The notes: generated by a model not told the origin, from the letters alone. A stretch of DNA of 33,198 nucleotides from a virus (IMGVR_UViG_3300045919_000425:1-33198), one strand, 5' to 3'; numbered from the stretch's first letter, positions 65 through 32,978 are shown. A program made the numbers and translations.

Positions 65-301
65 ATGAAATTAACAACTAGGACAGAGGTCAAAACACAC
101 CCATATTTTACGGTTTTAGATTTCATGAATTGTCCTGGTTGTCATTCAGAACAGCGGGCAATATCTCACACTGATAGGAAAGTAGGGAACCTATTAACCT
201 GCTGGAATTGTGGGGTTACCATTAAATTACATCATATGATTCAGTTTGATCATGAGGTGAGCGAATACGAAGCAGAGGTGATTAGTGTTAAAAATCATTA
301 G
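65..301 (+). CDS. small zinc-ribbon protein
   Basis: 78 aa ORF with CPGC and CWNC pairs. Confidence 0.65.
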   Translation: MKLTTRTEVKTHPYFTVLDFMNCPGCHSEQRAISHTDRKVGNLLTCWNCGVTIKLHHMIQFDHEVSEYEAEVISVKNH

Positions 302-18072: not shown

Positions 18073-18609
18073 TCAGAGTTCCCATACTAAAACTGCATCC
18101 AATCCATTATTAAACTCAATCGTTCTTGTTGGCTTTACGAGATCTATCCAATACTGGAGTGGTAAAAGCCTTTCATCTCCAAAGGAGGGTGTCTTCCATC
18201 CTTCGAGTGGTACATAATGTACAACCTTCTTAGCAGTGAATCTCTGTCTATGGATAATCCGCTTAATATCTTCATCGTTGAAATGTTCCAAAACTCCATG
18301 AGAGAAGATTATGTCTGGCTCATTGTCTACATATTGGAAGTTCAGAATACTTCCTTGAACTAAGTCAATCTTGCGATCTCCAATATTAACCCTAGCTAAA
18401 TTCAGTTGCTCTGGACATAAATCAAAAGCCGTGTGCTTTTTCCTACTTTTATGGTAAACAATCTTTGATATTGTCGCTATTCCACAGCCTTCTTCACTGA
18501 TATGATTAAGCGAGTGTAATTCGTCGATGAAGGCTTTGTACTTTATCTTACAATGTGCAGGATAAGAATCACCAACTCGTTTCTTGTAATACTCTGACCA
18601 TTCACTCAT
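18073..18609 (-). CDS. class I SAM-dependent methyltransferase
   Basis: EEGCGIA (motif I), AFDLCPEQL, QGSIL, DIIFSHGVLEHF. Confidence 0.85.
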   Translation of the reverse strand: MSEWSEYYKKRVGDSYPAHCKIKYKAFIDELHSLNHISEEGCGIATISKIVYHKSRKKHTAFDLCPEQLNLARVNIGDRKIDLVQGSILNFQYVDNEPDIIFSHGVLEHFNDEDIKRIIHRQRFTAKKVVHYVPLEGWKTPSFGDERLLPLQYWIDLVKPTRTIEFNNGLDAVLVWEL

Positions 18610-18655: not shown

Positions 18656-18970
18656 TCAGATTCTTTTTGGTCGATACTTTGGACGGTATAAGTTAATAAC
18701 CTTACCGTCGATATAAATAAGGGTTAGCTTGATAAGTGTTCCTGTAACGCCCGGATTACAAAGAAAAAGAGGCTCATGTGTCGATAGAACATTCTCGATC
18801 AGATAATTAACGATCTTATCACCCTTATCGCCTACTCTTCGTACAAGGCATGGCTGCTGTGTTTCTTCATTAAATATCTCAAAAATCTCATCTGTAAAAT
18901 CAAGCTGATAGAAAACGCAACATGGGATTCTACCATCGCAATCAATCTCTTCAAGACGGTACCAATTCAT
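18656..18970 (-). CDS. YxDG-family small protein
   Basis: MNWY...KLTLIYIDGKVINL. Confidence 0.75.
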   Translation of the reverse strand: MNWYRLEEIDCDGRIPCCVFYQLDFTDEIFEIFNEETQQPCLVRRVGDKGDKIVNYLIENVLSTHEPLFLCNPGVTGTLIKLTLIYIDGKVINLYRPKYRPKRI

Positions 18971-19008
18971 TCAAAGCCTCCTTTCTGTATTCCTTATCTG
19001 ACACTCCA

Positions 19009-19272
19009 TTACACAAACAAAGAATCATATGCTCTGCAAGTAAACCTTGTTAATAAACCAGCCGTCGTCGTTTGACGAAAAAGTCCTTCTTCTTTGTAGT
19101 GCTCGATATAGAGTTCATAATCTATGAGAGATCCTGGCCAATGCTGAAGAGGATAATTTCTATATAACTCGATAATCAGGTCACGAACTTCGCCCCAGTC
19201 AGATTCTCGCCACTCAGAATTACTCATTACGCCCTCCTTAAGGTTTATTTGAAGTGTTATTGAATACTTCAA
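19009..19272 (-). CDS. hypothetical protein
   Basis: 87 aa, TTG start. Confidence 0.55.
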   Translation of the reverse strand: MKYSITLQINLKEGVMSNSEWRESDWGEVRDLIIELYRNYPLQHWPGSLIDYELYIEHYKEEGLFRQTTTAGLLTRFTCRAYDSLFV

Positions 19273-19304
19273 CCAGTTAATTTCATATCACTATCCCCTA
19301 AATA

Positions 19305-19333
19305 ACTGTAGCATAGTTTTATCTATTTGTCAA
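19305..19333 (-). promoter_or_regulatory. sigma70 promoter
   Basis: minus strand TTGACA-17-TACAGT. Confidence 0.6.
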
Positions 19334-19623
19334 GTACCTAAATTCTTAAACAAACTCCTTATTGTTTTCACGGTGCCGTCTAAGTAAATAATAATTAAAG
19401 TCAAATCTGCTGATTCCTTCTTGAAGCAGAGAGTTTTATAGATCATAGATGACAAATAGCCATCTCCTTCTTCAATTATTTCATCCCTTTGGTTAGTTCT
19501 ACGGTAATAATCAAACACTTCGTCATATGTGGAAAACTCCCGAAAAATAAATTCAACCTGATTGGGTAGTCTCTCAGTAGGCTTATAGGTCCAAAGTGAA
19601 AATCTCTTCATTTGAAAAGCCAC
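19330..19623 (-). CDS. YxDG-family small protein
   Basis: LTLIIIYLDGTVKTI. Confidence 0.75.
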   Translation of the reverse strand: MAFQMKRFSLWTYKPTERLPNQVEFIFREFSTYDEVFDYYRRTNQRDEIIEEGDGYLSSMIYKTLCFKKESADLTLIIIYLDGTVKTIRSLFKNLGT

Positions 19624-20000
19624 GAAAGGTCGCCCTTCACATAATCTCGCCTAAATCCACCAGAGATGACCTTTTCTATTTGATCCTTAAAAATAATCCG
19701 AATATTAAACTCCTCTGCCTTGTAGTCGATAAACCTATCAGAAATAAGGCTTTGAGATATAAATTCCGACAAAAGAAGGCTAAAATCATCGAATTCGAGA
19801 TTGTTCGCAATTAAGCCATCAACAGTCCTGGTTGTTAAATTTATATCCATCGTAAATTTAAGCTTTACATCAGGAAAGGATGAGATCACTGGCCGATGAT
19901 TACCTACAGGTACAGTGATCTCATCCTTGCAAACCTCATATATTCTTTGCTCAGTAAGAGAGCCGTCTAAATCCTCAAACACAAACACAGTGTTACTCAT
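19608..20000 (-). CDS. hypothetical protein
   Basis: AGGAG RBS, 130 aa. Confidence 0.7.
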   Translation of the reverse strand: MSNTVFVFEDLDGSLTEQRIYEVCKDEITVPVGNHRPVISSFPDVKLKFTMDINLTTRTVDGLIANNLEFDDFSLLLSEFISQSLISDRFIDYKAEEFNIRIIFKDQIEKVISGGFRRDYVKGDLSWLFK

Positions 20001-20029
20001 TTAAATCTCCTAGCTTATTAGTCTTCTAA

Positions 20030-20236
20030 CTAAAGAACTTTTGTCGATCCGTCCATGTAGTGAATCTCTACTGGAGTTGTGCAGTCAATTGCAAAATTCT
20101 TGTACTGAGTAATTTCCCAATCTGCAAAAGGAGTCCGGGTTTTAATTGGCCCACAATTCGGTCCTTTTTTGTTTACCTTCATAACTACTTCCAAGTTTCC
20201 GTATTTGGCTGTTTTAATCTCAATGATTTTCTCCAA
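20030..20236 (-). CDS. YxDG-family small protein
   Basis: PVEIHYMDGSTKVL. Confidence 0.65.
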   Translation of the reverse strand: MEKIIEIKTAKYGNLEVVMKVNKKGPNCGPIKTRTPFADWEITQYKNFAIDCTTPVEIHYMDGSTKVL

Positions 20237-20412
20237 TATGTTATCGTTTATTGCATAAGAAACGCAATCTGATCGGAGGTGGTTGGAGTATCACCTTCAA
20301 CATAAACAATTAATCCTGACTGCAATTCCTGAATAACACTAAAACTCATTGTTTCCCTTTCTATGGATAGTTTTATCAATAACATTTATCCATATTTCTT
20401 GAATTATCTTCC

Positions 20413-20655
20413 TCAAAATATGGATAAATGCCTAATTGTGCCATCTAAATAAACTAGAGTTAAGTAAAGAGGACAACATTCTACCTTTGAGTCAATAACC
20501 TCTCCACCTCTTCCTATGACATATGTATATTTTTTAGTTAAGAATTCATTAAGTACATAGTCCATTTCTTCGTCATCTAGCCAAAGACTCGATTTATTAG
20601 TTTCTATGAAAGTTCTTACCTCTGACTCACGCTTAATTATCCACTTTCGAGACAT
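20413..20655 (-). CDS. YxDG-family small protein
   Basis: CCPLYLTLVYLDGTIRHL. Confidence 0.8.
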   Translation of the reverse strand: MSRKWIIKRESEVRTFIETNKSSLWLDDEEMDYVLNEFLTKKYTYVIGRGGEVIDSKVECCPLYLTLVYLDGTIRHLSIF

Positions 20656-20678
20656 TAGACCTCCTGTTTATGTAATGC

Positions 20679-21005
20679 CTAAAACTCTATCACCTGAACG
20701 TCATAATCTGGATTAGACAAATCACAATTCCCGAACCTTTTAATCGAACCATCTTTGTATATAAATATTACCCCATAATGCAAGGGGTTTTCCAAAGCGA
20801 AAGAAAGAGAATCTGCAAGTATTGTGTTATCGGCGTAATAGGCCATTCTAAAATCACTGTAATCCACAAACTCTGGAAGTACGTCGAGTACTTTTTGTTT
20901 AACATCCCTAAGATTACCGTACTCTATATATAAGTGAATTGCAATATTAATATTGCAATATTGTGTGATCCTTCCAATCCAACTTTTATCATACTTCTTT
21001 ATCAA
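20679..21005 (-). CDS. YxDG-family small protein
   Basis: GVIFIYKDGSIKRF; start uncertain. Confidence 0.65.
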   Translation of the reverse strand: MIKKYDKSWIGRITQYCNINIAIHLYIEYGNLRDVKQKVLDVLPEFVDYSDFRMAYYADNTILADSLSFALENPLHYGVIFIYKDGSIKRFGNCDLSNPDYDVQVIEF

Positions 21006-21132
21006 ATTGGATCTCCTTTATTAGCCCGTCTAAGTATTGTATCTCTAAAAACAACGGGCAACAGCTTGCGAAATTACCTCCTGACTTGGTTGACTGAATA
21101 AGTTTACCTGAAATGAACTCTCATAGTCTCAT
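20989..21132 (-). pseudogene. YxDG-family remnant with in-frame TGA
   Basis: MRL*EFISGKLIQSTKSGGNFASCCPLFLEIQYLDGLIKEIQFDKEV*. Confidence 0.6.
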
Positions 21133-21152
21133 ACAATTTACTGTTATTTTTG

Positions 21153-21432
21153 TTAAGGCTTCTTTGGATTGTAGTTTGGATTCCAAATCTCTTTAGCTTT
21201 CCCATCCAAGGGAACTAACTTAGTCATCTCAACCTTTATATAATTCCAACCAATAAAATTATTAGTAGGATCTACATTAAAGTACTTAACAGTGAAGCAA
21301 AAATGGGGTATTTGTTAAAGTCTCGTACAACTCTCTTTCCATCTCTTCTTTTAGGAGCATCCCCGAGAACCTCCCTGACTTAGCAGTCATCTCCCTTAAG
21401 TCTCCTTCCTCATCTGTTATCCAATGACTCAT
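21153..21432 (-). pseudogene. frameshifted YxDG-family gene (one extra base)
   Basis: MSHWITDEEG...LTNTP joins FCFTVKYF...KLVPLDGKAKEIWNPNYNPKKP* if one T is removed from the T5 run (plus-strand A run 21299-21303). Confidence 0.6.
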
Positions 21433-21498
21433 CTTAATACCCCCCCTTTTTTTTAATATCTAATTAATGTCAAATATTTATCACGCAGTAGAGGGGGG

Positions 21499-21798
21499 TC
21501 AGTTCATTCTTTTGTAATTAGGGTGGTAAAGGTCTTTAATTAATCCATCTTTGTATTTTAATGTTAAATGAAGAATCGATATTACAACATATGCCTTAGT
21601 TTTAGTATCGAGTGATATTGGCACTTGCATGTAATGGAATATATTATTAATATCTTTATCGGATATTTTCTTGAAATGGTTACCTAAATCATGGTCAGAT
21701 TCTACCAGCTCTTCAACTTTTTCTCCGAAATAATTTCCCCCTATTATGCTGAGGGTTCCTACAACGAACGATGTAGTTCTTTTAACATACCAAGCCAT
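21499..21798 (-). CDS. YxDG-family small protein
   Basis: MAWY...LHLTLKYKDGLIKDL. Confidence 0.8.
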   Translation of the reverse strand: MAWYVKRTTSFVVGTLSIIGGNYFGEKVEELVESDHDLGNHFKKISDKDINNIFHYMQVPISLDTKTKAYVVISILHLTLKYKDGLIKDLYHPNYKRMN

Positions 21799-21846
21799 AA
21801 TCTCTCCTTTCTTATAAGTTTTTCGATAAACTTTCTTTTAATCTAT

Positions 21847-22056
21847 TTAAATCAGGCTAAGCTCTTTTACTGTTCCGTCTTTATAGGATAATTTAAGATA
21901 TAAAGGGCATGAGTTTATGTGCTCTATGGTCTTGTTAAAAAACCGTGAAATCCAAATATCTACATACTCGGAAATTACTGTGGTTCGGGAGAGACTTATA
22001 CATTCATAAAAGCAAAGATCTATGGAACCACATTCCTTATACCAGACACAGTTCAT
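21847..22056 (-). CDS. YxDG-family small protein
   Basis: CPLYLKLSYKDGTVKEL. Confidence 0.8.
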   Translation of the reverse strand: MNCVWYKECGSIDLCFYECISLSRTTVISEYVDIWISRFFNKTIEHINSCPLYLKLSYKDGTVKELSLI

Positions 22057-22343
22057 AATATGCCCTCAACTATTGATAGGTTCTTAATAGTTTCGTCCAA
22101 ATAGTGAACCTCTATAAAAAGCGGACAGAATTCTACTGTATTCCCGTTCCTATCTTCATATATCAATCGGAGTTTTTTGGCATAAAGTGTTTCGATCATA
22201 AACGACACACTTTGATTAGACACTTGATTCCAATTCGAATACCTGTTTTCTTCGTCAAACCTACCATCAGGAATTACCGATGAAGACTCCTTTAATATGA
22301 ATCTTGGGTAATTCATTAAATGATCTGTATTATAAAACCACAC
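22053..22343 (-). CDS. YxDG-family small protein
   Basis: CPLFIEVHYLDETIKNL. Confidence 0.8.
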   Translation of the reverse strand: MWFYNTDHLMNYPRFILKESSSVIPDGRFDEENRYSNWNQVSNQSVSFMIETLYAKKLRLIYEDRNGNTVEFCPLFIEVHYLDETIKNLSIVEGIL

Positions 22344-22353
22344 ATACTTCTCC

Positions 22354-22590
22354 TTAAATCTTAGTAATGTATTTTACGTTCCCACACTGGAAATGCAAAT
22401 ACATTTCCATCCATTTGTTTGCACCAAAAGGTTCTAATTCTGCTGGCTCTTCTCTACCGATTAAGACCGCAGAAATAAGATGATTTACCTCACTTTCTGA
22501 CACTTTCAATAATTTACGAGTTACTTTGGTTTCATCATTGAACTCATAGCACTGAAAACTTCTTTTCCATCCTAATTCTATAAACCACAT
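22354..22590 (-). CDS. small protein, divergent YxDG-like
   Basis: MWFIEL...MYLHFQCGNVKYI; ATG 22590 preferred. Confidence 0.6.
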   Translation of the reverse strand: MWFIELGWKRSFQCYEFNDETKVTRKLLKVSESEVNHLISAVLIGREEPAELEPFGANKWMEMYLHFQCGNVKYITKI

Positions 22591-22661
22591 AACTAAACCT
22601 TCTTTCTTTTTGCTATAAACCTCCTGTAACACTCATAATCCTCCTCACTTAGAAGGTTTAA

Positions 22662-22686
22662 CTGGTCTAATGTAATATTAGACCAG
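22662..22686. terminator. 10-bp perfect hairpin, possible terminator or processing site
   Basis: CTGGTCTAAT-gtaat-ATTAGACCAG; U-tract weak. Confidence 0.35.
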
Positions 22687-22794
22687 AACTTAATTAACTC
22701 CTTCTTCTTTTCTGGCTTTTTAACTTCAACAAGTACCTTTCGTTTCGATTTCATGGTTCCTCCAGAATAAATGTATCATACATATTCAAATAAG

Positions 22795-23097
22795 TCAAAA
22801 GGGTGAGAAGTACATATCTCCATAATTCGAGTATGGTCTACCTTCTCTGTTATCTATCTTCACAACTCTTCCGTCTTCATAGTAAATAGTGAAAAAATTT
22901 AATGCGCCAAATCTATTAGAAATAACTTCTGATATTAAACTTGATAACGTATCGGAAGAGTAAACATTACCAGATTTGCGAAACTTATCCGGTCTTGGGC
23001 AACTATCATTTTCAATGAAAATCACATTAACCCCTCGAACCTTATTCGAATTTTCCCTAAATCTTCGATAGTACAACCTATAGTAATTCTTTTTCAT
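22795..23097 (-). CDS. YxDG-family small protein
   Basis: FFTIYYEDGRVVKI. Confidence 0.7.
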   Translation of the reverse strand: MKKNYYRLYYRRFRENSNKVRGVNVIFIENDSCPRPDKFRKSGNVYSSDTLSSLISEVISNRFGALNFFTIYYEDGRVVKIDNREGRPYSNYGDMYFSPF

Positions 23098-23102
23098 TGT
23101 TA

Positions 23103-23435
23103 TTACCTTACATTAAAGAATTTACGGGCATCTTCCTCTTTTGCATAGTAAAGAGACTCCAGATATCCATCACAGATGAATTCTACTACAACACTCCCTG
23201 ACCAGTGAAGTATTAGGTTTGCGGTGTTTTCAGAAACATTCTCAATCATAACTCTTTGTCCGTCCTCGTACGTTATGGATATAGGTTTTCTATAGCCCTC
23301 AAGAACAGTGACTATGACTCGTTGCATGCTATCTTGATGTAATCTATTACTCCAATCAATTAAGGCATCAGCGGTATTTGAATTCTTTTCGATAAAATGA
23401 ACTCCGCCTAATGTTGGATAGAAGTATTTAGCCAT
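23103..23435 (-). CDS. YxDG-family small protein (motif internal)
   Basis: PISITYEDGQRVMI. Confidence 0.65.
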   Translation of the reverse strand: MAKYFYPTLGGVHFIEKNSNTADALIDWSNRLHQDSMQRVIVTVLEGYRKPISITYEDGQRVMIENVSENTANLILHWSGSVVVEFICDGYLESLYYAKEEDARKFFNVR

Positions 23436-23598
23436 GAGACCTAATCTCCTTCACTAAACCATCCGCATAATAAATGAGGGCTGTGTCCTTTGTTGAGCAT
23501 AAAATCAGAGAAATTTTTCGAGAAATAGATATTTCATTGTCCAGTGAGACATTGATGGATAACTCTTCTCTGCCTATTTTAAGTACTTTCTCGGCCAA
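23428..23598 (-). CDS. 56-aa YxDG-family protein (not in ORF track)
   Basis: GGAGG RBS, TTG start; ...TALIYYADGLVKEIRSHG. Confidence 0.55.
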   Translation of the reverse strand: MAEKVLKIGREELSINVSLDNEISISRKISLILCSTKDTALIYYADGLVKEIRSHG

Positions 23599-23690
23599 AA
23601 CACTTGCCTCCGCCTCCCATCTTTCAACTGTATGAATAAGAAATCATACCCACCCAAAAGGTTGTACTTTTTCCAAGAAAACCAACGCAT
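23574..23690 (-). CDS. 38-aa YxDG-like peptide (not in ORF track)
   Basis: AGGAG RBS; MRWFSWKKYNLLGGYDFLFIQLKDGRRRQVFWPRKYLK. Confidence 0.5.
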   Translation of the reverse strand: MRWFSWKKYNLLGGYDFLFIQLKDGRRRQVFWPRKYLK

Positions 23691-23691
23691 A

Positions 23692-24036
23692 CTATCTCCT
23701 GTGTATTGTGATTTCGTTGTCCTCTGAAATAACCGTAATCGGGAAAATCCTATCTTCGCAAATCATCTCATCAATTCTCTGTTTAGTGAAATATCCACCA
23801 AAAATCTTTGCAGTTTGGTCATCAAAGGTTCTTAATTTACTTAGCGCCTCTTCTTTTGTCTGTGCGGCGATGAAAATATCCCCATACGGAATCCCCAAAT
23901 TCAATCTAGCTTTAAAGTACTTAATTTCATCTATCACTTGCAGTCTCTTCATTGTCGGTTTAAATCTCTCGTAAGACTCCTTAATCATATTACGAAGCTC
24001 ACTGATCGTTGGTTTTGTTTTCATACATCTCTCCAT
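23692..24036 (-). CDS. hypothetical protein
   Basis: 114 aa; true start may be ATG 24024. Confidence 0.65.
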   Translation of the reverse strand: MERCMKTKPTISELRNMIKESYERFKPTMKRLQVIDEIKYFKARLNLGIPYGDIFIAAQTKEEALSKLRTFDDQTAKIFGGYFTKQRIDEMICEDRIFPITVISEDNEITIHRR

Positions 24037-24395
24037 ATTCCGTCTAAATATAATAATGAGAATCTACTTCCACTCATCAAAGATTGCCTAATCTCGTCAC
24101 TTGTGCTCAAAACAACCTTTGAGCACCTATACTCCGACTTAACATCATCTATGGATAAAATGAAACGAAAGACTTGCCCACCGTAGGAAGAATCTTGATC
24201 GTATTCACAATTAATACCTACTCCTTTTAAGAGTGGGATTACTTCCTCAGCCGCCGTTATAATGATTATTGCTGATGTTTCAATGAATAAATAATTGGAC
24301 GAGAGTCTTTTATACCTTGCTAATAGGTCTTTATTTCTAGCAAGCTTCTTATTTATCATTATTGAGCGCTGCTCAAGCACTAACCATCGACTCAT
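24021..24395 (-). CDS. YxDG-family small protein
   Basis: MSRW...FSLLYLDGIWRDV. Confidence 0.75.
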   Translation of the reverse strand: MSRWLVLEQRSIMINKKLARNKDLLARYKRLSSNYLFIETSAIIIITAAEEVIPLLKGVGINCEYDQDSSYGGQVFRFILSIDDVKSEYRCSKVVLSTSDEIRQSLMSGSRFSLLYLDGIWRDV

Positions 24396-24664
24396 AGATT
24401 AATCTCCCTGATTACTCCATTTAAAAACCCAAGAACCAGCACTGAATCTTTATTAAATTTAAAGAAGTTGTGCTTGGATATATTACCTCTCTCGTCAAAA
24501 TGAAGGATAAATTCACGTCCAACTAGTGCATTCTCTGTAATAATTTCCATCTGCTCTTCTGAGCGTATACAGTATTTTTCTCCACATGGGAGGTTGGATT
24601 CTTTACTCATCTCATTGAAGACGTATTTAGATTCCGACTCGAACATACACACCCAATAGCTCAT
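24392..24664 (-). CDS. small protein, YxDG-like
   Basis: MSYW...VLVLGFLNGVIREI; AGGAG RBS favours ATG 24664. Confidence 0.65.
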   Translation of the reverse strand: MSYWVCMFESESKYVFNEMSKESNLPCGEKYCIRSEEQMEIITENALVGREFILHFDERGNISKHNFFKFNKDSVLVLGFLNGVIREINL

Positions 24665-24738
24665 CCTCGCTCCTTTAACCATGCTCGCTTAACAGTTCTT
24701 CCACTAAGATTGTTTTTATCAGATATTAAAGTGAATAT

Positions 24739-25080
24739 TTACCTGCGTTTATCAGATTTTTTACCAGAACACTTAGTTTTAGGTGGTTTAGTGCTCTTAT
24801 CTGTTTCATTTTCGATAATCCTTACTATTCCATCAAGATATTTAACGTTTATTTTCTTTAATTTATGGATTTTATCCTCAGCCCGGCTTGGAAGAGTTCT
24901 CAAGCCTGTGATTATCTTAAAATCCACGCCAGATATTACTGCCAGAATTAGCAAACTGAACGCCTGGTCAGAAAATACAGATTCCTTAAGGTCAAACTCA
25001 CAAATACTTAACCCTTCTCCGATATAACGTGTTATTTCATACCAATCTATGAAATTATGAGTCTTAAAACTTCTAGCCAT
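24739..25080 (-). CDS. YxDG-family small protein
   Basis: KINVKYLDGIVRII. Confidence 0.75.
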   Translation of the reverse strand: MARSFKTHNFIDWYEITRYIGEGLSICEFDLKESVFSDQAFSLLILAVISGVDFKIITGLRTLPSRAEDKIHKLKKINVKYLDGIVRIIENETDKSTKPPKTKCSGKKSDKRR

Positions 25081-25397
25081 CAGTTTTCCTCACAATTCTT
25101 GATGTTCTCTTTTGATTCTTCGACTAATTTTGTAAAAATAGTGCCCTGTAAGTACTTCCTGCGGTAGCATTGATATTTTTCACACCTATGAACAGGTGAA
25201 GTTATTGGAACTAATACCTTACCGACTAATACGAATGAATGATTGTAATGATCTATGACCGTATTTTCACATACATTCACTAATTCCGTAAAGAGTTCAC
25301 CTTTTTTATGTGGTCGAATAAGGATCGGTATTAAGAAAATCGCCAATAAGAAAGCCAATACTAGGTATATTACAAGTTTCGGGGAAGTGGGACTCAT
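25080..25397 (-). CDS. membrane-anchored protein
   Basis: N-terminal helix LVIYLVLAFLLAIFLIPILI. Confidence 0.7.
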   Translation of the reverse strand: MSPTSPKLVIYLVLAFLLAIFLIPILIRPHKKGELFTELVNVCENTVIDHYNHSFVLVGKVLVPITSPVHRCEKYQCYRRKYLQGTIFTKLVEESKENIKNCEEN

Positions 25398-25702
25398 TTA
25401 ACCCTCCCTATAAAGCTGTTGATATCTTCTTTTGTTAATTCTTCGCCAGATATTTTGATCTCCGAACCATCACTAAACATAATTGAATGTGACTTATCTG
25501 CACAGATCTCGTGTAAAATGACACAATGTAAGGTTTCTGGTATTTTTGACCAATGCTCATACGACCCAGTTCCATTTAGAAACCCCAATCTATGTTGGAT
25601 ACTGTTATTTACAAGATCGCCTTCGCTTATGTGACTGAATAGCTCTTTTATACTGTAAAGATTACCCGCAACAAAGGTGAATTCCGTTCGCTTGATCATC
25701 AT
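25394..25702 (-). CDS. small protein, weak YxDG-like motif
   Basis: HSIMFSDGSEIKI. Confidence 0.6.
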   Translation of the reverse strand: MMIKRTEFTFVAGNLYSIKELFSHISEGDLVNNSIQHRLGFLNGTGSYEHWSKIPETLHCVILHEICADKSHSIMFSDGSEIKISGEELTKEDINSFIGRVK

Positions 25703-26324: not shown

Positions 26325-26492
26325 TCAGTGACTATAAAATTCATTCCAGCGTTCTTCCCAGTACTCCTGATAAGTTTCTGCGCATTGATCACAAAGTAAA
26401 GGTTCTCGATTTCTGTCGGGTTCTGTGTAATTTGTCATACATGCCCTGTACAGTAATGAGTCTGCTGGAACCTGGCAAAATTCACATTCCAT
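26325..26492 (-). CDS. 55-aa zinc-finger-like protein (not in ORF track)
   Basis: AGGAGG RBS; MECEFC...LLCDQCAETYQEYWEERWNEFYSH. Confidence 0.7.
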   Translation of the reverse strand: MECEFCQVPADSLLYRACMTNYTEPDRNREPLLCDQCAETYQEYWEERWNEFYSH

Positions 26493-26500
26493 GTTTCCTC

Positions 26501-26731
26501 CTAATATCCTCGCATTTCCCTTTCAAGCTCTGCCCGAATTTCGGAGTCTAGCTCCATACGACGCTGTTCTTGAAGGTATTCATTTTCTTGATCTTCTAAA
26601 AGTGCTGACTGCTCCCAAACTTCATACATTGCAGATTCCACTGCTTGAAGCTCCTCTTCTGTATGGTCAATACCTAGTCCTAATAATATTTCTTCCCGTT
26701 TCTCATTCAGCTTAGATAATTCGTTTTGCAT
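26501..26731 (-). CDS. acidic coiled-coil protein
   Basis: GGAGGG RBS, E-rich. Confidence 0.7.
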   Translation of the reverse strand: MQNELSKLNEKREEILLGLGIDHTEEELQAVESAMYEVWEQSALLEDQENEYLQEQRRMELDSEIRAELEREMRGY

Positions 26732-26748: not shown

Positions 26749-26777
26749 AATCTATCATACCCTTAACAGTCTGTCAA
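26749..26777 (-). promoter_or_regulatory. sigma70 promoter
   Basis: minus strand TTGACA-17-TAGATT with extended -10 TG. Confidence 0.75.
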
Positions 26778-26822: not shown

Positions 26823-27731
26823 ATGAGTGGTACGACTAGTATTGGTATGATCTTACCCTATGCAGGGGACATCCGGCAGGGATTTTTACCAAGAGGGTTT
26901 CTGTTTTGCGACGGTTCGGCTATTTCAAGGAGTCAGTATTCTGATCTATTTGATGTGATCGGAGTTTCATTTGGAGTAGGAGATGGAGTCTCCACCTTTA
27001 AACTACCTGATTTTAGGGGTAGATTTATTAGAGGTGTAGATAACGCATCTGGTCACGATCCAGATGCTTCCAGGAGGGTTTCTATGGCATCTGGTGGCAA
27101 TCCTGGAGATAACGTAGGATCTATCCAAACCGATGAAATACTATCTCACACTCACTTTGGGAATGTCTCTGGTGTACCGCAAGCCAATGCGACCACTATG
27201 TGTGCTCAAGCTGGTGGACTTGATATTGGGGATATATTTGCGCTGCGTATGTCTTATTCTGGTGGTGCTGAAACTAGGCCAAAAAATGCGGCAGCTCATT
27301 TTATTATTAAATACACAGAAATATCACCAGTTTCACTTAACATAACAAAGACGGACTTTTCCTCCCAATCTTTTGTGCCCAATACTCGCATACCTTTAAG
27401 TTGGGATTCATATGATTCGATCTATGACCCATATAAAATGAAGATGGCTGATAAAACCGCATTATTTCTCCCAACACAAGGAGAATATGATATTTCCAGC
27501 TCGTGCTTATTTGATGGCTCATTGTCTGGGATTAAGAATGTGACAATTTCCGTGCTTATTAATGGCCGGATACTTCAGGAAAATACAATCTCAGGAGTTT
27601 CTTCTTTAGTTTGTTGCAGTTCGTCACTGAATTCTGGAGATTTTGTTGAAATACGGATAACACAAGACGGGAAACTCCTGGCCCCACTAATTTTCGCTTC
27701 AATAAGTATTAAGCTGGCCAGAGTTTATTGA
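26823..27731 (+). CDS. phage tail-collar domain protein with C-terminal C1q-like domain
   Basis: IGMILPYAG..GFLFCDGSAISRSQYSDLFDVIG..TFKLPDFRGRFIRG; ETRPKN; C-terminal PTQGEYDI and LNSGDFVEI. Confidence 0.85.
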   Translation: MSGTTSIGMILPYAGDIRQGFLPRGFLFCDGSAISRSQYSDLFDVIGVSFGVGDGVSTFKLPDFRGRFIRGVDNASGHDPDASRRVSMASGGNPGDNVGSIQTDEILSHTHFGNVSGVPQANATTMCAQAGGLDIGDIFALRMSYSGGAETRPKNAAAHFIIKYTEISPVSLNITKTDFSSQSFVPNTRIPLSWDSYDSIYDPYKMKMADKTALFLPTQGEYDISSSCLFDGSLSGIKNVTISVLINGRILQENTISGVSSLVCCSSSLNSGDFVEIRITQDGKLLAPLIFASISIKLARVY

Positions 27732-29475: not shown

Positions 29476-31044
29476 TCAGACAACAGAGAGTTTATCACTA
29501 TCATTCTTGATGCAAATTAAATTAACGGTTCTATCTGCTAGGATCTCCGTTAAATCTACATACATATCGGTAACATACACTACCGATATTAACTTATTTG
29601 GTGGCAGATCTAAATCTTCCCGAATTTGCTTGATTTGTGCTGAACCCAAATCAGTTCCTCCACCTCCAACCAGGGCTACCTTGGAAGCCATTACGGCTGC
29701 GGGATCTACTCGCCGAAGTTCCACATCACAACAGTACATTGCTGATAAATGTCCTGCCTTCATCAGACTGTTCGCAACAGAAAAACTCATACTCAATGTT
29801 TCTTCATCAAACATAGAACCTGAAGTGTCCAAGACTAAAATAATAGCCGGCCTGTAATTTTGTGCTGAAAACCTTTCAGTAGGGACAAAGAATGAATTTC
29901 TGGATCTAATAACCCTCCAAGACAATTCACTTTTAGGCTTAGATGACAAAACCTTCACTGCATTTCGAATTTTCATTAAGAGAGCTGTAATGTACTGAGG
30001 CGCATATTTTTCTTTTACGAAAATTTCTGCATCTGCTGCACCCTTTCCAGGAGAACCTTTTGTTAGATCTCTCCCTACCACCTTAGCCTGGCGCATGGCC
30101 TTTTCTGTTCTTTTCTTTCTAGACTCCTTGGAATTATCACCATCGTCACAATCCATATCATGATCATCAAGCCCGTTTTCTCCAACTTGATCGAGCTTAT
30201 CCTTCATTCTCCGAAATGCTATGCTCGATAAAATAGGCCAACTCGTATCCGGTCGCACTTCTTGAATAGAGATGTCGTTTGGATCTATAGGGAATAATTC
30301 ATCAAAACCTGCTACCGTGCAATATGAAGTGAAAGGAGTCCCACTGATCGATTTCTCCCTCTCTCCTTCTAATCTTAGTAACTCTTTCTCCGTGGAGCTA
30401 ATTTTATCGCTCAGCAGATTTGCCTCTGAGGAATCTACTGTTGAGCTTAATATCTCATTAAGCTTGATTAACGTTAACTTTAACTCCTTGATAGCTTCTT
30501 CTAACGTGTATCGAGAAATTTCATACGCCCCTGCCTGGATTTCTTCCATCTGAAGAATATCTGAATGTAAGGCCATATCCATACAGATATTCAGAATTCT
30601 ATGCGCTGAAGAGCCTTTTATTTTCCCAGTTTTTTCATCTTCCAGCATTTTAGCTAGATCTGAATCAAGCTCTCTGTTGGAAGTTTGGTCTCTTTGATAA
30701 GCCTGGGGGATATGCCTTAGTTCGTGTAAGATTAAGAAGCATACTGCCCGTGCTGAACCCTTAAATGGAAATCCTGGATTGATTTCTATTGTTTTTTCAA
30801 AAAAATTTTCAGATGGCCGTTCTGTTTCCGGCATAAAAGTTTCGATGATATCTTTACGGATCGAAACTTTTATATCCTTAGTAATGGTTATAGAAGCTAA
30901 CGCCCGTGCTTTTGATGGGAATTCCCATATATCAACCACTGAAGCTAACGCTTGGGTGTAATACATCTGTTTTTGACGTAAGTACGAGTACAATGTAGAT
31001 CTAGCTAGGTGATACTTCTCTTCCGTAGACAATTCTCTCTTCAT
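29476..31044 (-). CDS. DUF2201-type protein: HExxH metallopeptidase-like domain plus VWA domain
   Basis: LILHELRHI; ILVLDTSGSM (MIDAS); GGGGTD. Confidence 0.85.
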   Translation of the reverse strand: MKRELSTEEKYHLARSTLYSYLRQKQMYYTQALASVVDIWEFPSKARALASITITKDIKVSIRKDIIETFMPETERPSENFFEKTIEINPGFPFKGSARAVCFLILHELRHIPQAYQRDQTSNRELDSDLAKMLEDEKTGKIKGSSAHRILNICMDMALHSDILQMEEIQAGAYEISRYTLEEAIKELKLTLIKLNEILSSTVDSSEANLLSDKISSTEKELLRLEGEREKSISGTPFTSYCTVAGFDELFPIDPNDISIQEVRPDTSWPILSSIAFRRMKDKLDQVGENGLDDHDMDCDDGDNSKESRKKRTEKAMRQAKVVGRDLTKGSPGKGAADAEIFVKEKYAPQYITALLMKIRNAVKVLSSKPKSELSWRVIRSRNSFFVPTERFSAQNYRPAIILVLDTSGSMFDEETLSMSFSVANSLMKAGHLSAMYCCDVELRRVDPAAVMASKVALVGGGGTDLGSAQIKQIREDLDLPPNKLISVVYVTDMYVDLTEILADRTVNLICIKNDSDKLSVV

Positions 31045-31073: not shown

Positions 31074-32282
31074 TTACGATTTAATAGAAGACTGATTATT
31101 AAGAATCAACTTACCGCAACCACCATTAGCCTTCATGATGACAAAAATGTTGACATCCTTGAATTTGCCATCCCTAGTTTCTATCTCAAGCCTTACGGAA
31201 TCTGTGTATGAAATATTTGCTGGACTTAACACATAAGACACAACTTCAGGAGAAGCCATTTCGTACAAATAATTCGTGTAAATAATCGACCTTCTTTTGG
31301 ATTCTTCTGTTGTGATGGTTGGGATAACCTCACGGAGCTTTCTTAAAAGAAATCCGTAAACTTCTACCTGTTGTCCTGTTGATTCTAACTTCTTAAATAC
31401 ATGGAAATTATCATAAGTTAACTCCTCTGGTATTTTAACTTCCTTCTTCTTTTCTCTTAATATGCGTAAATCCTCTGCTAAGATTTCCCCATACTCTAAT
31501 CCTAATCTTCCACATAAAATAGTGGAAATTTCATTGTCATCCAAGAAATCCATTCCTGCTTCGATGATCGCTATCGCATCTGTCTGTTGACGAGCACACG
31601 CAAGTTGTTTATGATCGTATCCGTCAACGTCAAAAAAGTGCTTTTGAACAAAATACGTAATACAAGATGGTCCACGCATTTCAATTAGTTCTAAGTTTAG
31701 TCCCGTGGCATACTTTTTAAACGTATTGTAGTCAATTTGATGTGTCACATGAGTAAATCTTCTCATTCCAGCCTGGTTTAATGTTAAGTCCTGATGGCCA
31801 CCATCTTCACGATCAAAGTTTGAGGCAGCGATAATAAACACATCACCTCTTATCTTACGGCCTGCAATTGTGTGATCATTTGCTATTTCCATGATGATAG
31901 GGAGCATGCTTTGATGTGCTCTTGTGATCTCATCCAAAAACAAGAACATTGGTGGGTACTTATTACCGTTTTCATCTACTGCGTCAGTTAGTTTACGAAT
32001 CCACCATGCTGGAAATTCAACCAGTTTCCCATCCACGATCCCCATAGCGAACATATCTATAGATGATTTATCTGCCATAGGCAAAACGAAGCATTCAAAT
32101 CCACATTCCTTAGCTAACTCCTGGGATAACTCTTTGGAAAAAGCTGTGACCGATTGCGATTTACCGTTTCCTGATGAACCCCAAATTAATAAAGACTTGT
32201 TTGCTAGTATATGTGCTTTAACTATGTTTCTGGTATTCAAATAAGAAGAATAAGATCTGACAGAATTATTTGTATCGTTCAT
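31074..32282 (-). CDS. MoxR-like AAA+ ATPase
   Basis: Walker A GSSGNGKS, Walker B LFLDE, AASN, RRF; adjacent VWA gene. Confidence 0.9.
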   Translation of the reverse strand: MNDTNNSVRSYSSYLNTRNIVKAHILANKSLLIWGSSGNGKSQSVTAFSKELSQELAKECGFECFVLPMADKSSIDMFAMGIVDGKLVEFPAWWIRKLTDAVDENGNKYPPMFLFLDEITRAHQSMLPIIMEIANDHTIAGRKIRGDVFIIAASNFDREDGGHQDLTLNQAGMRRFTHVTHQIDYNTFKKYATGLNLELIEMRGPSCITYFVQKHFFDVDGYDHKQLACARQQTDAIAIIEAGMDFLDDNEISTILCGRLGLEYGEILAEDLRILREKKKEVKIPEELTYDNFHVFKKLESTGQQVEVYGFLLRKLREVIPTITTEESKRRSIIYTNYLYEMASPEVVSYVLSPANISYTDSVRLEIETRDGKFKDVNIFVIMKANGGCGKLILNNQSSIKS

Positions 32283-32662: not shown

Positions 32663-32691
32663 ACTCTACCAGACATTTAACTAAAAGTCAA
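32663..32691 (-). promoter_or_regulatory. sigma70 promoter of the early family
   Basis: minus strand TTGACT-tttagttaaatgtctgg-TAGAGT. Confidence 0.7.
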
Positions 32692-32978
32692 GGACTCCGC
32701 TTAATTATTTTAACACATCCATCTAAGTACCGTAATTCTATATACAAAGGGCAGTTTAATCCACACATCTCATCGTCTGCCTCTGCGTAATCCTCGGCAC
32801 CACTGTCATAAAACACAAGACTCCCTTCGATACAATCTCGGACTATGTTATTCATCTCATTTTCATAGTAAGTAAAATCTGGATCGTACTCTAACATTTC
32901 TCTATCAAGGTCACGGAACAAGAATTGCACGTAAGTGTTTGAATAACTTTTCATCGCCCAAATAGTTAATTCATTCAT
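32688..32978 (-). CDS. YxDG-family small protein
   Basis: NCPLYIELRYLDGCVKII. Confidence 0.8.
   Translation of the reverse strand: MNELTIWAMKSYSNTYVQFLFRDLDREMLEYDPDFTYYENEMNNIVRDCIEGSLVFYDSGAEDYAEADDEMCGLNCPLYIELRYLDGCVKIIKRSP

Follow-up and report, generated by a model that had tools for sequence, protein, structure and literature searches.

The first 33,198 nucleotides (nt) of the virus record IMGVR_UViG_3300045919_000425, hereafter the window, contain an array of small minus-strand genes in which a block of ∼6.4 kb (18656–25080, counted from the first letter of the window) holds 17 of the ∼22 genome copies of a single, highly diverged protein family. The common feature of these proteins is a C-terminal hairpin pattern, L-x-L-x-Y-x-D-G-x-V-K-x-L, in which hydrophobic residues alternate around an Asp-Gly turn. 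That the genes constitute a real paralog family, expressed and with a shared scaffold, is highly probable. The best overall explanation of the array, to which we assign about an even chance, is a diversified scaffold family of early accessory proteins. The record as a whole is a single contig of 158,938 nt with 38.5% GC, classed as linear in IMG/VR with a CheckV completeness of 98.

The original prediction, made by inspection of the sequence, had listed 13 C-terminal motifs from the array and one further copy at 32688, and each of these (13/13, and likewise the 32688 copy) was found at the end of a minus-strand open reading frame (ORF) with the expected stop coordinate. A regular expression for the motif, [YFH].[DN][GE].[VILWT][KRV].[IVLF], matched 16 of 1076 genome ORFs as compared to 1.44 ± 1.16 (maximum 5) in 200 residue shuffles. 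Fourteen of the 16 matches are family genes, while the remaining two, in a methyltransferase and a 243-amino acid (aa) protein, look like chance. Because this expression was composed after the list of motifs had been seen, profile tests weigh more. An iterated hidden Markov model (HMM) search of six-frame segments converged on 18 members, three of them non-seed copies, and leave-one-out HMMs recovered 12 of 16 members at rank 1 to 3 among the 1076 ORFs. Four genes (20030, 20679, 24021, and 24392) were weak in the leave-one-out test, and their membership rests mainly on the motif. An HMM built from the 13 array genes only found the dispersed copies at 88639 (expectation value [E] 1.8e-7), 32688 (3.7e-5), 65582 (1.4e-4), and 154761 (4.9e-4), as compared to a best E of 7.2 among reversed-sequence decoys. 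The predicted aromatic N terminus was likewise observed, with 11 of 18 members, as compared to 20 of 467 other ORFs, carrying a Trp among their first eight residues (Fisher p 2.6e-10). A short motif, with a similar hairpin known from unrelated proteins, might arise by chance or from composition in small AT-rich ORFs; against the excess over shuffled ORFs, the retrieval of dispersed copies by the array-only profile, and the restriction of all motif matches to the coding strand and to C termini, we regard such an origin as negligible.

The 17 block members comprise nine robust, four weak, one divergent, one mini, one split, and one remnant copy, so the earlier count of about 17 array ORFs holds only if the remnant, frameshift-split, 38-aa mini, and divergent copies are included. 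Two details of that count did not survive: the ORF at 20989, quoted among the array ORFs, is a truncated remnant that lacks a start codon, and 25394–25702, placed inside the array, lacks profile support (HMM E 5–8). Five or six copies lie beyond the window, at 65.6 to 66.0, 88.6, and 154.8 to 155.4 kb of the record. The copies are as follows (RBS, ribosome-binding site; pLDDT, predicted local distance difference test).

18656–18970, minus: member, 104 aa, basic LYRPKY tail subtype (HMM E 8e-17; leave-one-out E 0.002, rank 2)
19330–19611, minus: member, 93 aa, MKRFSLW...IIYLDGTVKTI (leave-one-out E 6.8e-7, rank 1; same start in the public protein set, P0007)
20030–20236, minus: weak member, 68 aa, TTG start, no clear RBS (hairpin motif; leave-one-out E 2.4)
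20413–20655, minus: member, 80 aa, CCPLYL subtype (leave-one-out E 2.8e-8; AlphaFold2 pLDDT 76.7, element order bb-a-bb-bb)
20679–21005, minus: weak member, 108 aa, TTG start, AAGGAG RBS (HMM E 3e-14 as seed; leave-one-out E 3.3)
20989–21120, minus: N-terminally truncated remnant, CCPLFL-type, 43 codons, no ATG, GTG, or TTG start (non-seed match, E 2e-6 to 7e-8)
21153–21432, minus: split copy, 1-nt frame change at a C4/T5 run (frame view; tail-subtype regular expression); N-half 21286–21432 (MSHWIT...), C-half 21153–21314 (...LVPLDGKAKEIWNPNY)
21499–21798, minus: member, 99 aa, LYHPNY tail subtype (leave-one-out E 0.0018, rank 2)
21847–22056, minus: member, 69 aa, counterpart P0016 (leave-one-out E 7.8e-6; 45% identity to P0016)
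22053–22316, minus: member, 87 aa, MNYPRF...FCPLFIEVHYLDETIKNL (BLASTP to the 20413 copy, E 1.7e-5; leave-one-out E 0.012)
22354–22590, minus: divergent member, 78 aa, MWFIEL...HFQCGNVKYI (repeatedly the top non-training match of hairpin-less N-terminal profiles, E 0.03–0.9)
22795–23097, minus: member, 100 aa, basic (leave-one-out E 0.037, rank 3)
23103–23435, minus: possible member, 45-aa C-terminal extension, ISITYEDGQRVMI (motif and element order by eye; HMM E 0.5–5; membership not established)
23428–23598, minus: short member, 56 aa (leave-one-out E 0.014, rank 2)
23574–23690, minus: mini copy, 38 aa, Trp strand fused directly to hairpin and FWPRKY tail (sequence; tail regular expression)
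24021–24395, minus: weak member, 124 aa (motif at extreme C terminus; leave-one-out E 2.8)
24392–24664, minus: weak member, 90 aa, MSYWVCMF...GFLNGVIREI (HMM E 1e-13 as seed; leave-one-out E 11)
24739–25080, minus: member, 113 aa, basic tail, counterpart P0014 (61% identity to P0014; leave-one-out E 0.039)
32688–32978, minus: dispersed member, 96 aa, isoelectric point (pI) 4.1, counterpart P0011 (array-only HMM E 3.7e-5; 47% identity; AlphaFold2 pLDDT 70.5)
65582–65861, outside the window: copy split at a T5 run
65861–66010, outside the window: copy without a start codon
88639–88896, outside the window: copy
154761–155054, outside the window: copy, with a probable neighboring copy at 154991–155380

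Six unrelated small genes (19009, 19608, 20248, 22593, 23692, and 25080) are interleaved with the members and gave no match in Pfam. A perfect inverted repeat of 16 nt with a 21-nt gap (19876–19928) lies inside the 130-aa gene 19608–20000, and another of 15 nt with an 18-nt gap (20383–20430) spans the 20385/20413 gene junction.

Conservation in the array was proposed to lie at the protein level, and this view was upheld, with no DNA repeat family detected under the motif or across genes. Motif codons vary (Tyr as TAT in nine cases and TAC in seven, Asp as GAC in ten and GAT in nine, and four Gly codons), and such synonymous variation at conserved residues indicates selection acting on the protein. 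Mean column identity in the protein alignment of the copies is 18%; recurring columns in the larger alignment are W, F-x-E, and S-x-x-E-[MIV]. Cys-Pro directly before the hairpin is the mark of a tighter subgroup, and a basic tail, [LIV][YWF]xPxY, is found in four array copies (four matches to this expression versus 0.04 in shuffles). Isoelectric points range from 4.1 to 10.7 across members. The middles had been called unalignable by eye, which is true to the extent that leave-one-out detection fails without the hairpin, although some pairs do align over their full length by BLASTP (20413/22053, E 1.7e-5; 88639/32688, E 6e-4).

No known family accounts for these proteins. Searches of Pfam-A and PHROGs v4 with ten members returned no Pfam match above cut-off and no PHROG match below E 0.007, a sequence-profile search of the PDB gave only hairpin-length chance matches, and a word-indexed homolog search found nothing beyond the genome's own proteins. 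Related DNA was not detected by megablast or tblastn in a phage collection, in IMG/VR scans, or in two metagenome scans, and among the 50,697 phages of that collection no record resembled this phage, whether by DNA or by its ATPase protein. In an exhaustive profile search of 1.84 billion representative proteins, the outside small-protein matches were only P0011, P0014, and P0016, all encoded on one 45.5-kb contig (Logan, run SRR20217181), beside which a 1.6-kb fragment, ERR12037365, is listed. These three relatives also gave no match in Pfam-A or PHROGs v4. The family is uncatalogued and, to date, known from two phage genomes only.

The SRR20217181 contig mirrors the window in gene order and sizes: a 93-aa family member is followed by a 111-aa gene, a 403-aa ATPase, and a 513-aa protein, and onward by a collar-domain gene, a 200-aa gene, and then approximately twenty small genes. 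Full-length identities are 47% for P0011/32688, 61% for P0014/24739, and 45% for P0016/21847, in the same order. Counted from the ∼200-aa gene, P0014 and the 24739 copy both stand third among the genes that follow it; P0016 stands fifteenth and the 21847 copy fourteenth. The presence of collinear counterparts in both phages places the duplications before the split of the two phages, and, judged by their sequences, the counterparts recovered in the relative have been retained individually since then. Conservation of the three relatives over their full length further indicates that purifying selection has acted on those copies, their variable parts as well.

Against this background, the earlier suggestion of a gene accordion was not sustained. 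Near-identical tandem DNA copies were sought and not found, with no repeat family spanning genes; the copies are ∼18% identical and without DNA similarity, whereas the relatives are 45 to 61% identical to, and collinear with, their counterparts. For comparison of copy number, the sole relative is distant (at that same 45 to 61%) and largely collinear in gene order and sizes. Four copies are decayed, two being split by frameshifts and two being remnants without starts. One-base frame changes occur at homopolymer runs, at 21286–21314 of the window (C4/T5) and at 65667–65722 of the full record (G000:C1; T5), and for the two frame-split copies a pseudogene, an error of assembly, or a frameshift site may be considered. 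Together, split and truncated copies indicate an ongoing, slow birth and death. The family, as read from its sequences, is old, stable, and diversified, with some decayed copies, rather than a live gene accordion. Two other paralog triplets in the genome (6168–6530, 9112–9471, and 10101–10412, plus strand; and G000:C1:59054–60742, minus strand) are far less diverged, at 48 to 54% and 41 to 60% identity in an all-against-all BLASTP comparison.

Structure prediction was performed with AlphaFold2 for two members, with the 96-aa 32688 copy first in a 15-row alignment (pLDDT 70.5) and with the 80-aa 20413 copy first in a 20-row alignment (pLDDT 76.7). The two models agree in element order, in line with the expectation of related folds: an N-terminal β-hairpin that includes the Trp strand, a helix of 12 to 13 residues, a short hairpin, and the C-terminal hairpin. 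Modeling was best in both for this last hairpin and the helix, the short middle hairpin being poorly defined, and in both the conserved hairpin is built into the domain's own sheet together with the N-terminal strands. Fold searches with both models (Foldseek against PDB, BFVD, and AFDB clusters; ESM Atlas; VIA-align wide) returned nothing above noise, with best values of VIA-align Z 4.7, Foldseek E ≥ 0.14, and template modeling (TM) score ≤ 0.5, to short uncharacterized proteins; ESM Atlas feature searches gave no usable match. The two models retrieve the same weak list of structures and therefore resemble each other; with models of moderate quality, the fold is called unassigned rather than new. 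In a homodimer prediction for the 80-aa 20413 copy, the chains themselves folded poorly, and the prediction is given no weight in either direction as to oligomerization. A degenerate PD-(D/E)XK nuclease was considered and rejected, since the residue two positions before the conserved Lys is T, L, I, S, K, R, G, C, or V and never acidic, and the element order differs; the structural echo is weak (best Z 3.6, TM 0.44–0.47, Foldseek E > 0.1).

By its sequence pattern, the motif looks like a stable hairpin with a two-residue turn and one buried face. The profile search also returned long proteins matching the hairpin only, namely Big_3, Big_2, and Rib-like immunoglobulin (Ig) repeats and P0009, a protein with a type IX secretion system (T9SS) tail. 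The hairpin of the family is near-identical to the YxDG(T)xK hairpin of Big_3 (PF07523), Big_2 (PF02368), and RibLong (PF18957) and of the P0009 repeats, for example YPITIVYEDGTSKEI versus CPLYLKLSYKDGTVKEL; in contrast to Ig-like repeats, the AlphaFold2 models have a helix between hairpins and no Ig sandwich, and the family proteins gave no match to the Big_3, Big_2, or Rib Pfam models. P0009 (780 aa; ENA metagenome, 37-kb contig; Por_Secre_tail) contains seven 93-aa repeats of the form CFExxYPxTYxMPDGT ... EWYxxNP ... YPxTIVYEDGTxKxI, with strings such as YPITIVYEDGTSKEI in each repeat and no Pfam model above threshold. Its repeat shares the order hairpin, helix, hairpin; homology nonetheless found no support outside the hairpin, as the profile–profile alignment spans only 16 hairpin residues at 66% probability. 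Recurrence of the YxDG hairpin is probably convergence on a structural solution. Placement of the hairpin in the domain sheet by AlphaFold2, together with the occurrence of the same sequence in unrelated Ig-like repeats, makes a structural-core reading the simpler one, under which conservation of the hairpin would require no docking role; on these models the motif is most likely part of the folded core and no proven docking tag, and we rather favor a mainly structural role for the hairpin.

Transcription of the array was considered with respect to a promoter class, TTGAC[AT]-N12-14-TGnTAnnnT, which was built from plus-strand sites and frequently has TAGTTAA in the spacer. Thirty sites of this class occur genome-wide, both strands counted, as compared to 1.0 in shuffles, and the class precedes accessory, replication, and nucleotide-metabolism genes. 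Three sites within or ahead of the array are oriented with its genes. The sites and the flanking genes in the window are as follows.

26749–26777, minus: host-type promoter heading the operon block, TTGACA, 17 nt, TG-extended TAGATT; the region's best promoter-like site
22770–22798, minus: internal promoter of the same class
19305–19333, minus: internal promoter of the same class
32691–32663, minus: fourth promoter site, directly after the 32688 copy
14051 (plus), 15789 (plus), and 17894 (minus): other window sites of the class
18073–18609, minus: S-adenosylmethionine (SAM)-dependent methyltransferase
26823–27731, plus: tail-collar fiber protein
31074–32282, minus: AAA_5-type ATPase

Behind the promoter at 26777–26749, the block opens with three genes, whose products are a 76-aa protein, a Cys-rich 55-aa protein, and a 197-aa protein. 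Most array genes have an RBS of the GGAG type and abut or overlap their neighbors. The operon leader is short, and BLAST against the rest of the genome shows no copy of it. From these sequence features, the array would be transcribed by host polymerase before the late phase, early timing being presumed. The 76-aa product (26501–26731, minus) is acidic and probably helical, and the 55-aa product (26325–26492, minus) looks zinc-ribbon-like, with CxxC...CxxC spacing; neither gave a match in Pfam.

Taken together, the family is proposed to consist of small (∼40–125 aa), cytoplasmic, single-domain α/β proteins, a lineage-specific multigene family in which the N-terminal Trp strand and the C-terminal hairpin would form the domain's own β-sheet and serve as the fold-determining scaffold. 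Helix, loops, tails, and surface charge would have diverged almost completely into individually conserved specificities. Host RNA polymerase would read the genes from the three promoters, of sigma-70 type with extended −10 elements, as translationally coupled polycistrons that are not late structural genes. The array would then supply a battery of early accessory proteins with a common scaffold and a different host target each, acting in host takeover or counter-defense, and would have arisen by old tandem duplication with slow birth and death since. The original prediction had raised a diversified anti-defense or host-targeting repertoire. Its first half is borne out by a real, diversified protein-level family with conserved ends and varied charge, while for its second half the nonstructural region and host-type promoters are compatible with host interaction or anti-defense, a role that we hold tentatively, at somewhat below an even chance. 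A stronger version, in which the phage encodes a binder scaffold with a rigid core and more than 20 surface variants, each neutralizing a different defense or takeover target, is possible but unlikely.

Several points weigh against this interpretation. Once the hairpin is removed, no significant family-wide similarity remains; as homology beyond the hairpin is undetectable across the family, weak members may share a C-terminal module on unrelated N termini. The AlphaFold2 models are of moderate confidence and rest on alignments of 15 to 20 sequences, and single-sequence models of the same proteins in the ESM Atlas are poor (pLDDT 0.41–0.49). Instead of contributing to a core, the conserved Lys could, with the hydrophobic residues of the hairpin's second face, make up a binding surface. 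Since the promoter class also lies ahead of replication and nucleotide-metabolism genes, it indicates transcription that is not late, rather than specifically immediate-early. Fold, early timing, and binding function are each inferred from sequence and models.

The principal competing view makes the hairpin, alone or together with the N-terminal strand, a docking or oligomerization tag through which variable cargo would reach a single common partner, for instance the AAA_5 ATPase and its von Willebrand factor A (VWA)-like neighbor, or the capsid interior as for the internal proteins of phage T4. The pattern of conserved ends and variable middles would suit such a tag, as would the conserved Lys and the partly hydrophobic second hairpin face, which could be an interface, and the 32688 copy, which lies two genes upstream of the ATPase module, with its counterpart P0011 in the same place in the relative. 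Yet this is the only one of ∼22 copies near the ATPase and VWA-like genes, 6 to 14 kb separate those genes from 16 other array copies, both AlphaFold2 models place the hairpin in the domain's own sheet, and the same hairpin sequence is simply structural in many unrelated Ig-like repeat domains. The “MoxR/VWA pair” named as a possible partner is plausible, if weakly supported, as judged from sequence: the 522-aa protein downstream of the ATPase (29476–31044, minus) has faint matches to DUF2201 (VWA-like, E 0.078) and to a phage metallopeptidase (E 0.21), and it also matches PHROG 1314, labeled HNH endonuclease, with E 8.5e-15. T4-type internal proteins carry a capsid-targeting sequence, are packaged in the head, and are expressed from late genes; the array promoters, which appear host-type and not late, argue weakly against an equivalent here. 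We consider a docking function rather unlikely.

Two further explanations concern what the diversity is for, or whether it is for anything. Small nucleic-acid-binding or transcription-modulating factors, with diversity tracking DNA or RNA sites or RNA polymerase surfaces, would be consistent with the strongly basic copies (pI 9.5–10.7) and their Lys/Arg-rich tails, and weak structural echoes of nuclease-like and ALBA/DNA-binding folds were seen (Z 2.6–3.6). These echoes are, however, below any meaningful threshold, other copies are strongly acidic (pI 4.1–5.4), and no helix-turn-helix, zinc ribbon, or known nucleic-acid-binding family was detected in Pfam, PHROG, and PDB profile searches, so that a function of this kind appears improbable. 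Alternatively, the array might be mostly debris, with duplicates drifting to loss and the motif slowest to decay, as the two copies frame-split at homopolymer runs, the two without starts, and the four barely recognizable members might suggest. At least 17 copies nonetheless retain open frames, ribosome-binding sites, and coupling; all three counterparts known from the relative are collinear and conserved from end to end; and synonymous variation at conserved residues points to protein-level selection. Debris is in our estimation very improbable as an account of the array.

By analogy, the nearest precedent to the array in form is found in the tandem arrays of phages G and 121Q, and in logic in the rudivirus AcrID1 clusters. 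Arrays with upward of 30 similar genes are found in phages G and 121Q (Hua et al. 2017, PMC5646251), and the array here is like them in its head-to-tail small genes of one family, tandem duplication, and setting among the accessory genes of a large phage, as well as in the promoters interspersed within it. Unlike their “very similar” copies, those described here are ∼18% identical without DNA similarity, and they have no sequence relation to those arrays. Plastic, “hyperplastic” regions are described for T4-type phages (PMC4122927), a type to which the phage here is not assigned. AcrID1 homologs of the Rudiviridae are clustered, duplicated, and highly diverged, with a minimum pairwise identity of 7.3%, and their clusters, which share early promoters, have been read as duplication and functional diversification against host defense (PMC11065993). 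Like them, the present array groups numerous highly divergent paralogs from a single family of small proteins; those, however, are archaeal viruses, and an anti-defense activity of the family here would be conjectural. No homology to AcrID1 was detected, the profile search of the 1.84e9 representatives having given only this lineage and hairpin-only matches. Poxvirus-type accordions are recent, near-identical amplifications in which copy number shifts between close relatives. The proposed origin here, by tandem multiplication of a viral host-interaction gene, is similar, whereas the copies in this array are old and diverged and follow the gene order of the relative.

Among the recognizable genes of the phage is an endolysin gene, and GroEL, NAMPT, ribonucleotide reductase, and RNA ligase are encoded elsewhere in its genome. 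A 41-aa stretch is encoded identically at both contig ends (window 65–301; G000:C1:158815–158940), which suggests a terminal overlap, by circular permutation or terminal repeat, despite the linear class assigned in IMG/VR.

The phage devotes ∼4% of its genome to one uncatalogued small-protein family, and its relative keeps at least three copies individually and in order, as would be expected for accessory proteins aimed at distinct targets, the class that yields anti-defense and host-takeover factors. Arrays of diverged small genes have already been described in large phages, and what is added here is a new family and testable candidates rather than a new principle. Protein engineers may also take an interest in a compact scaffold of hairpin, helix, and hairpin that is apparently new and withstands a near-complete change of its surface. 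If the phage does encode a binder scaffold, the array would be a ready-made library of new anti-defense proteins on one fold.

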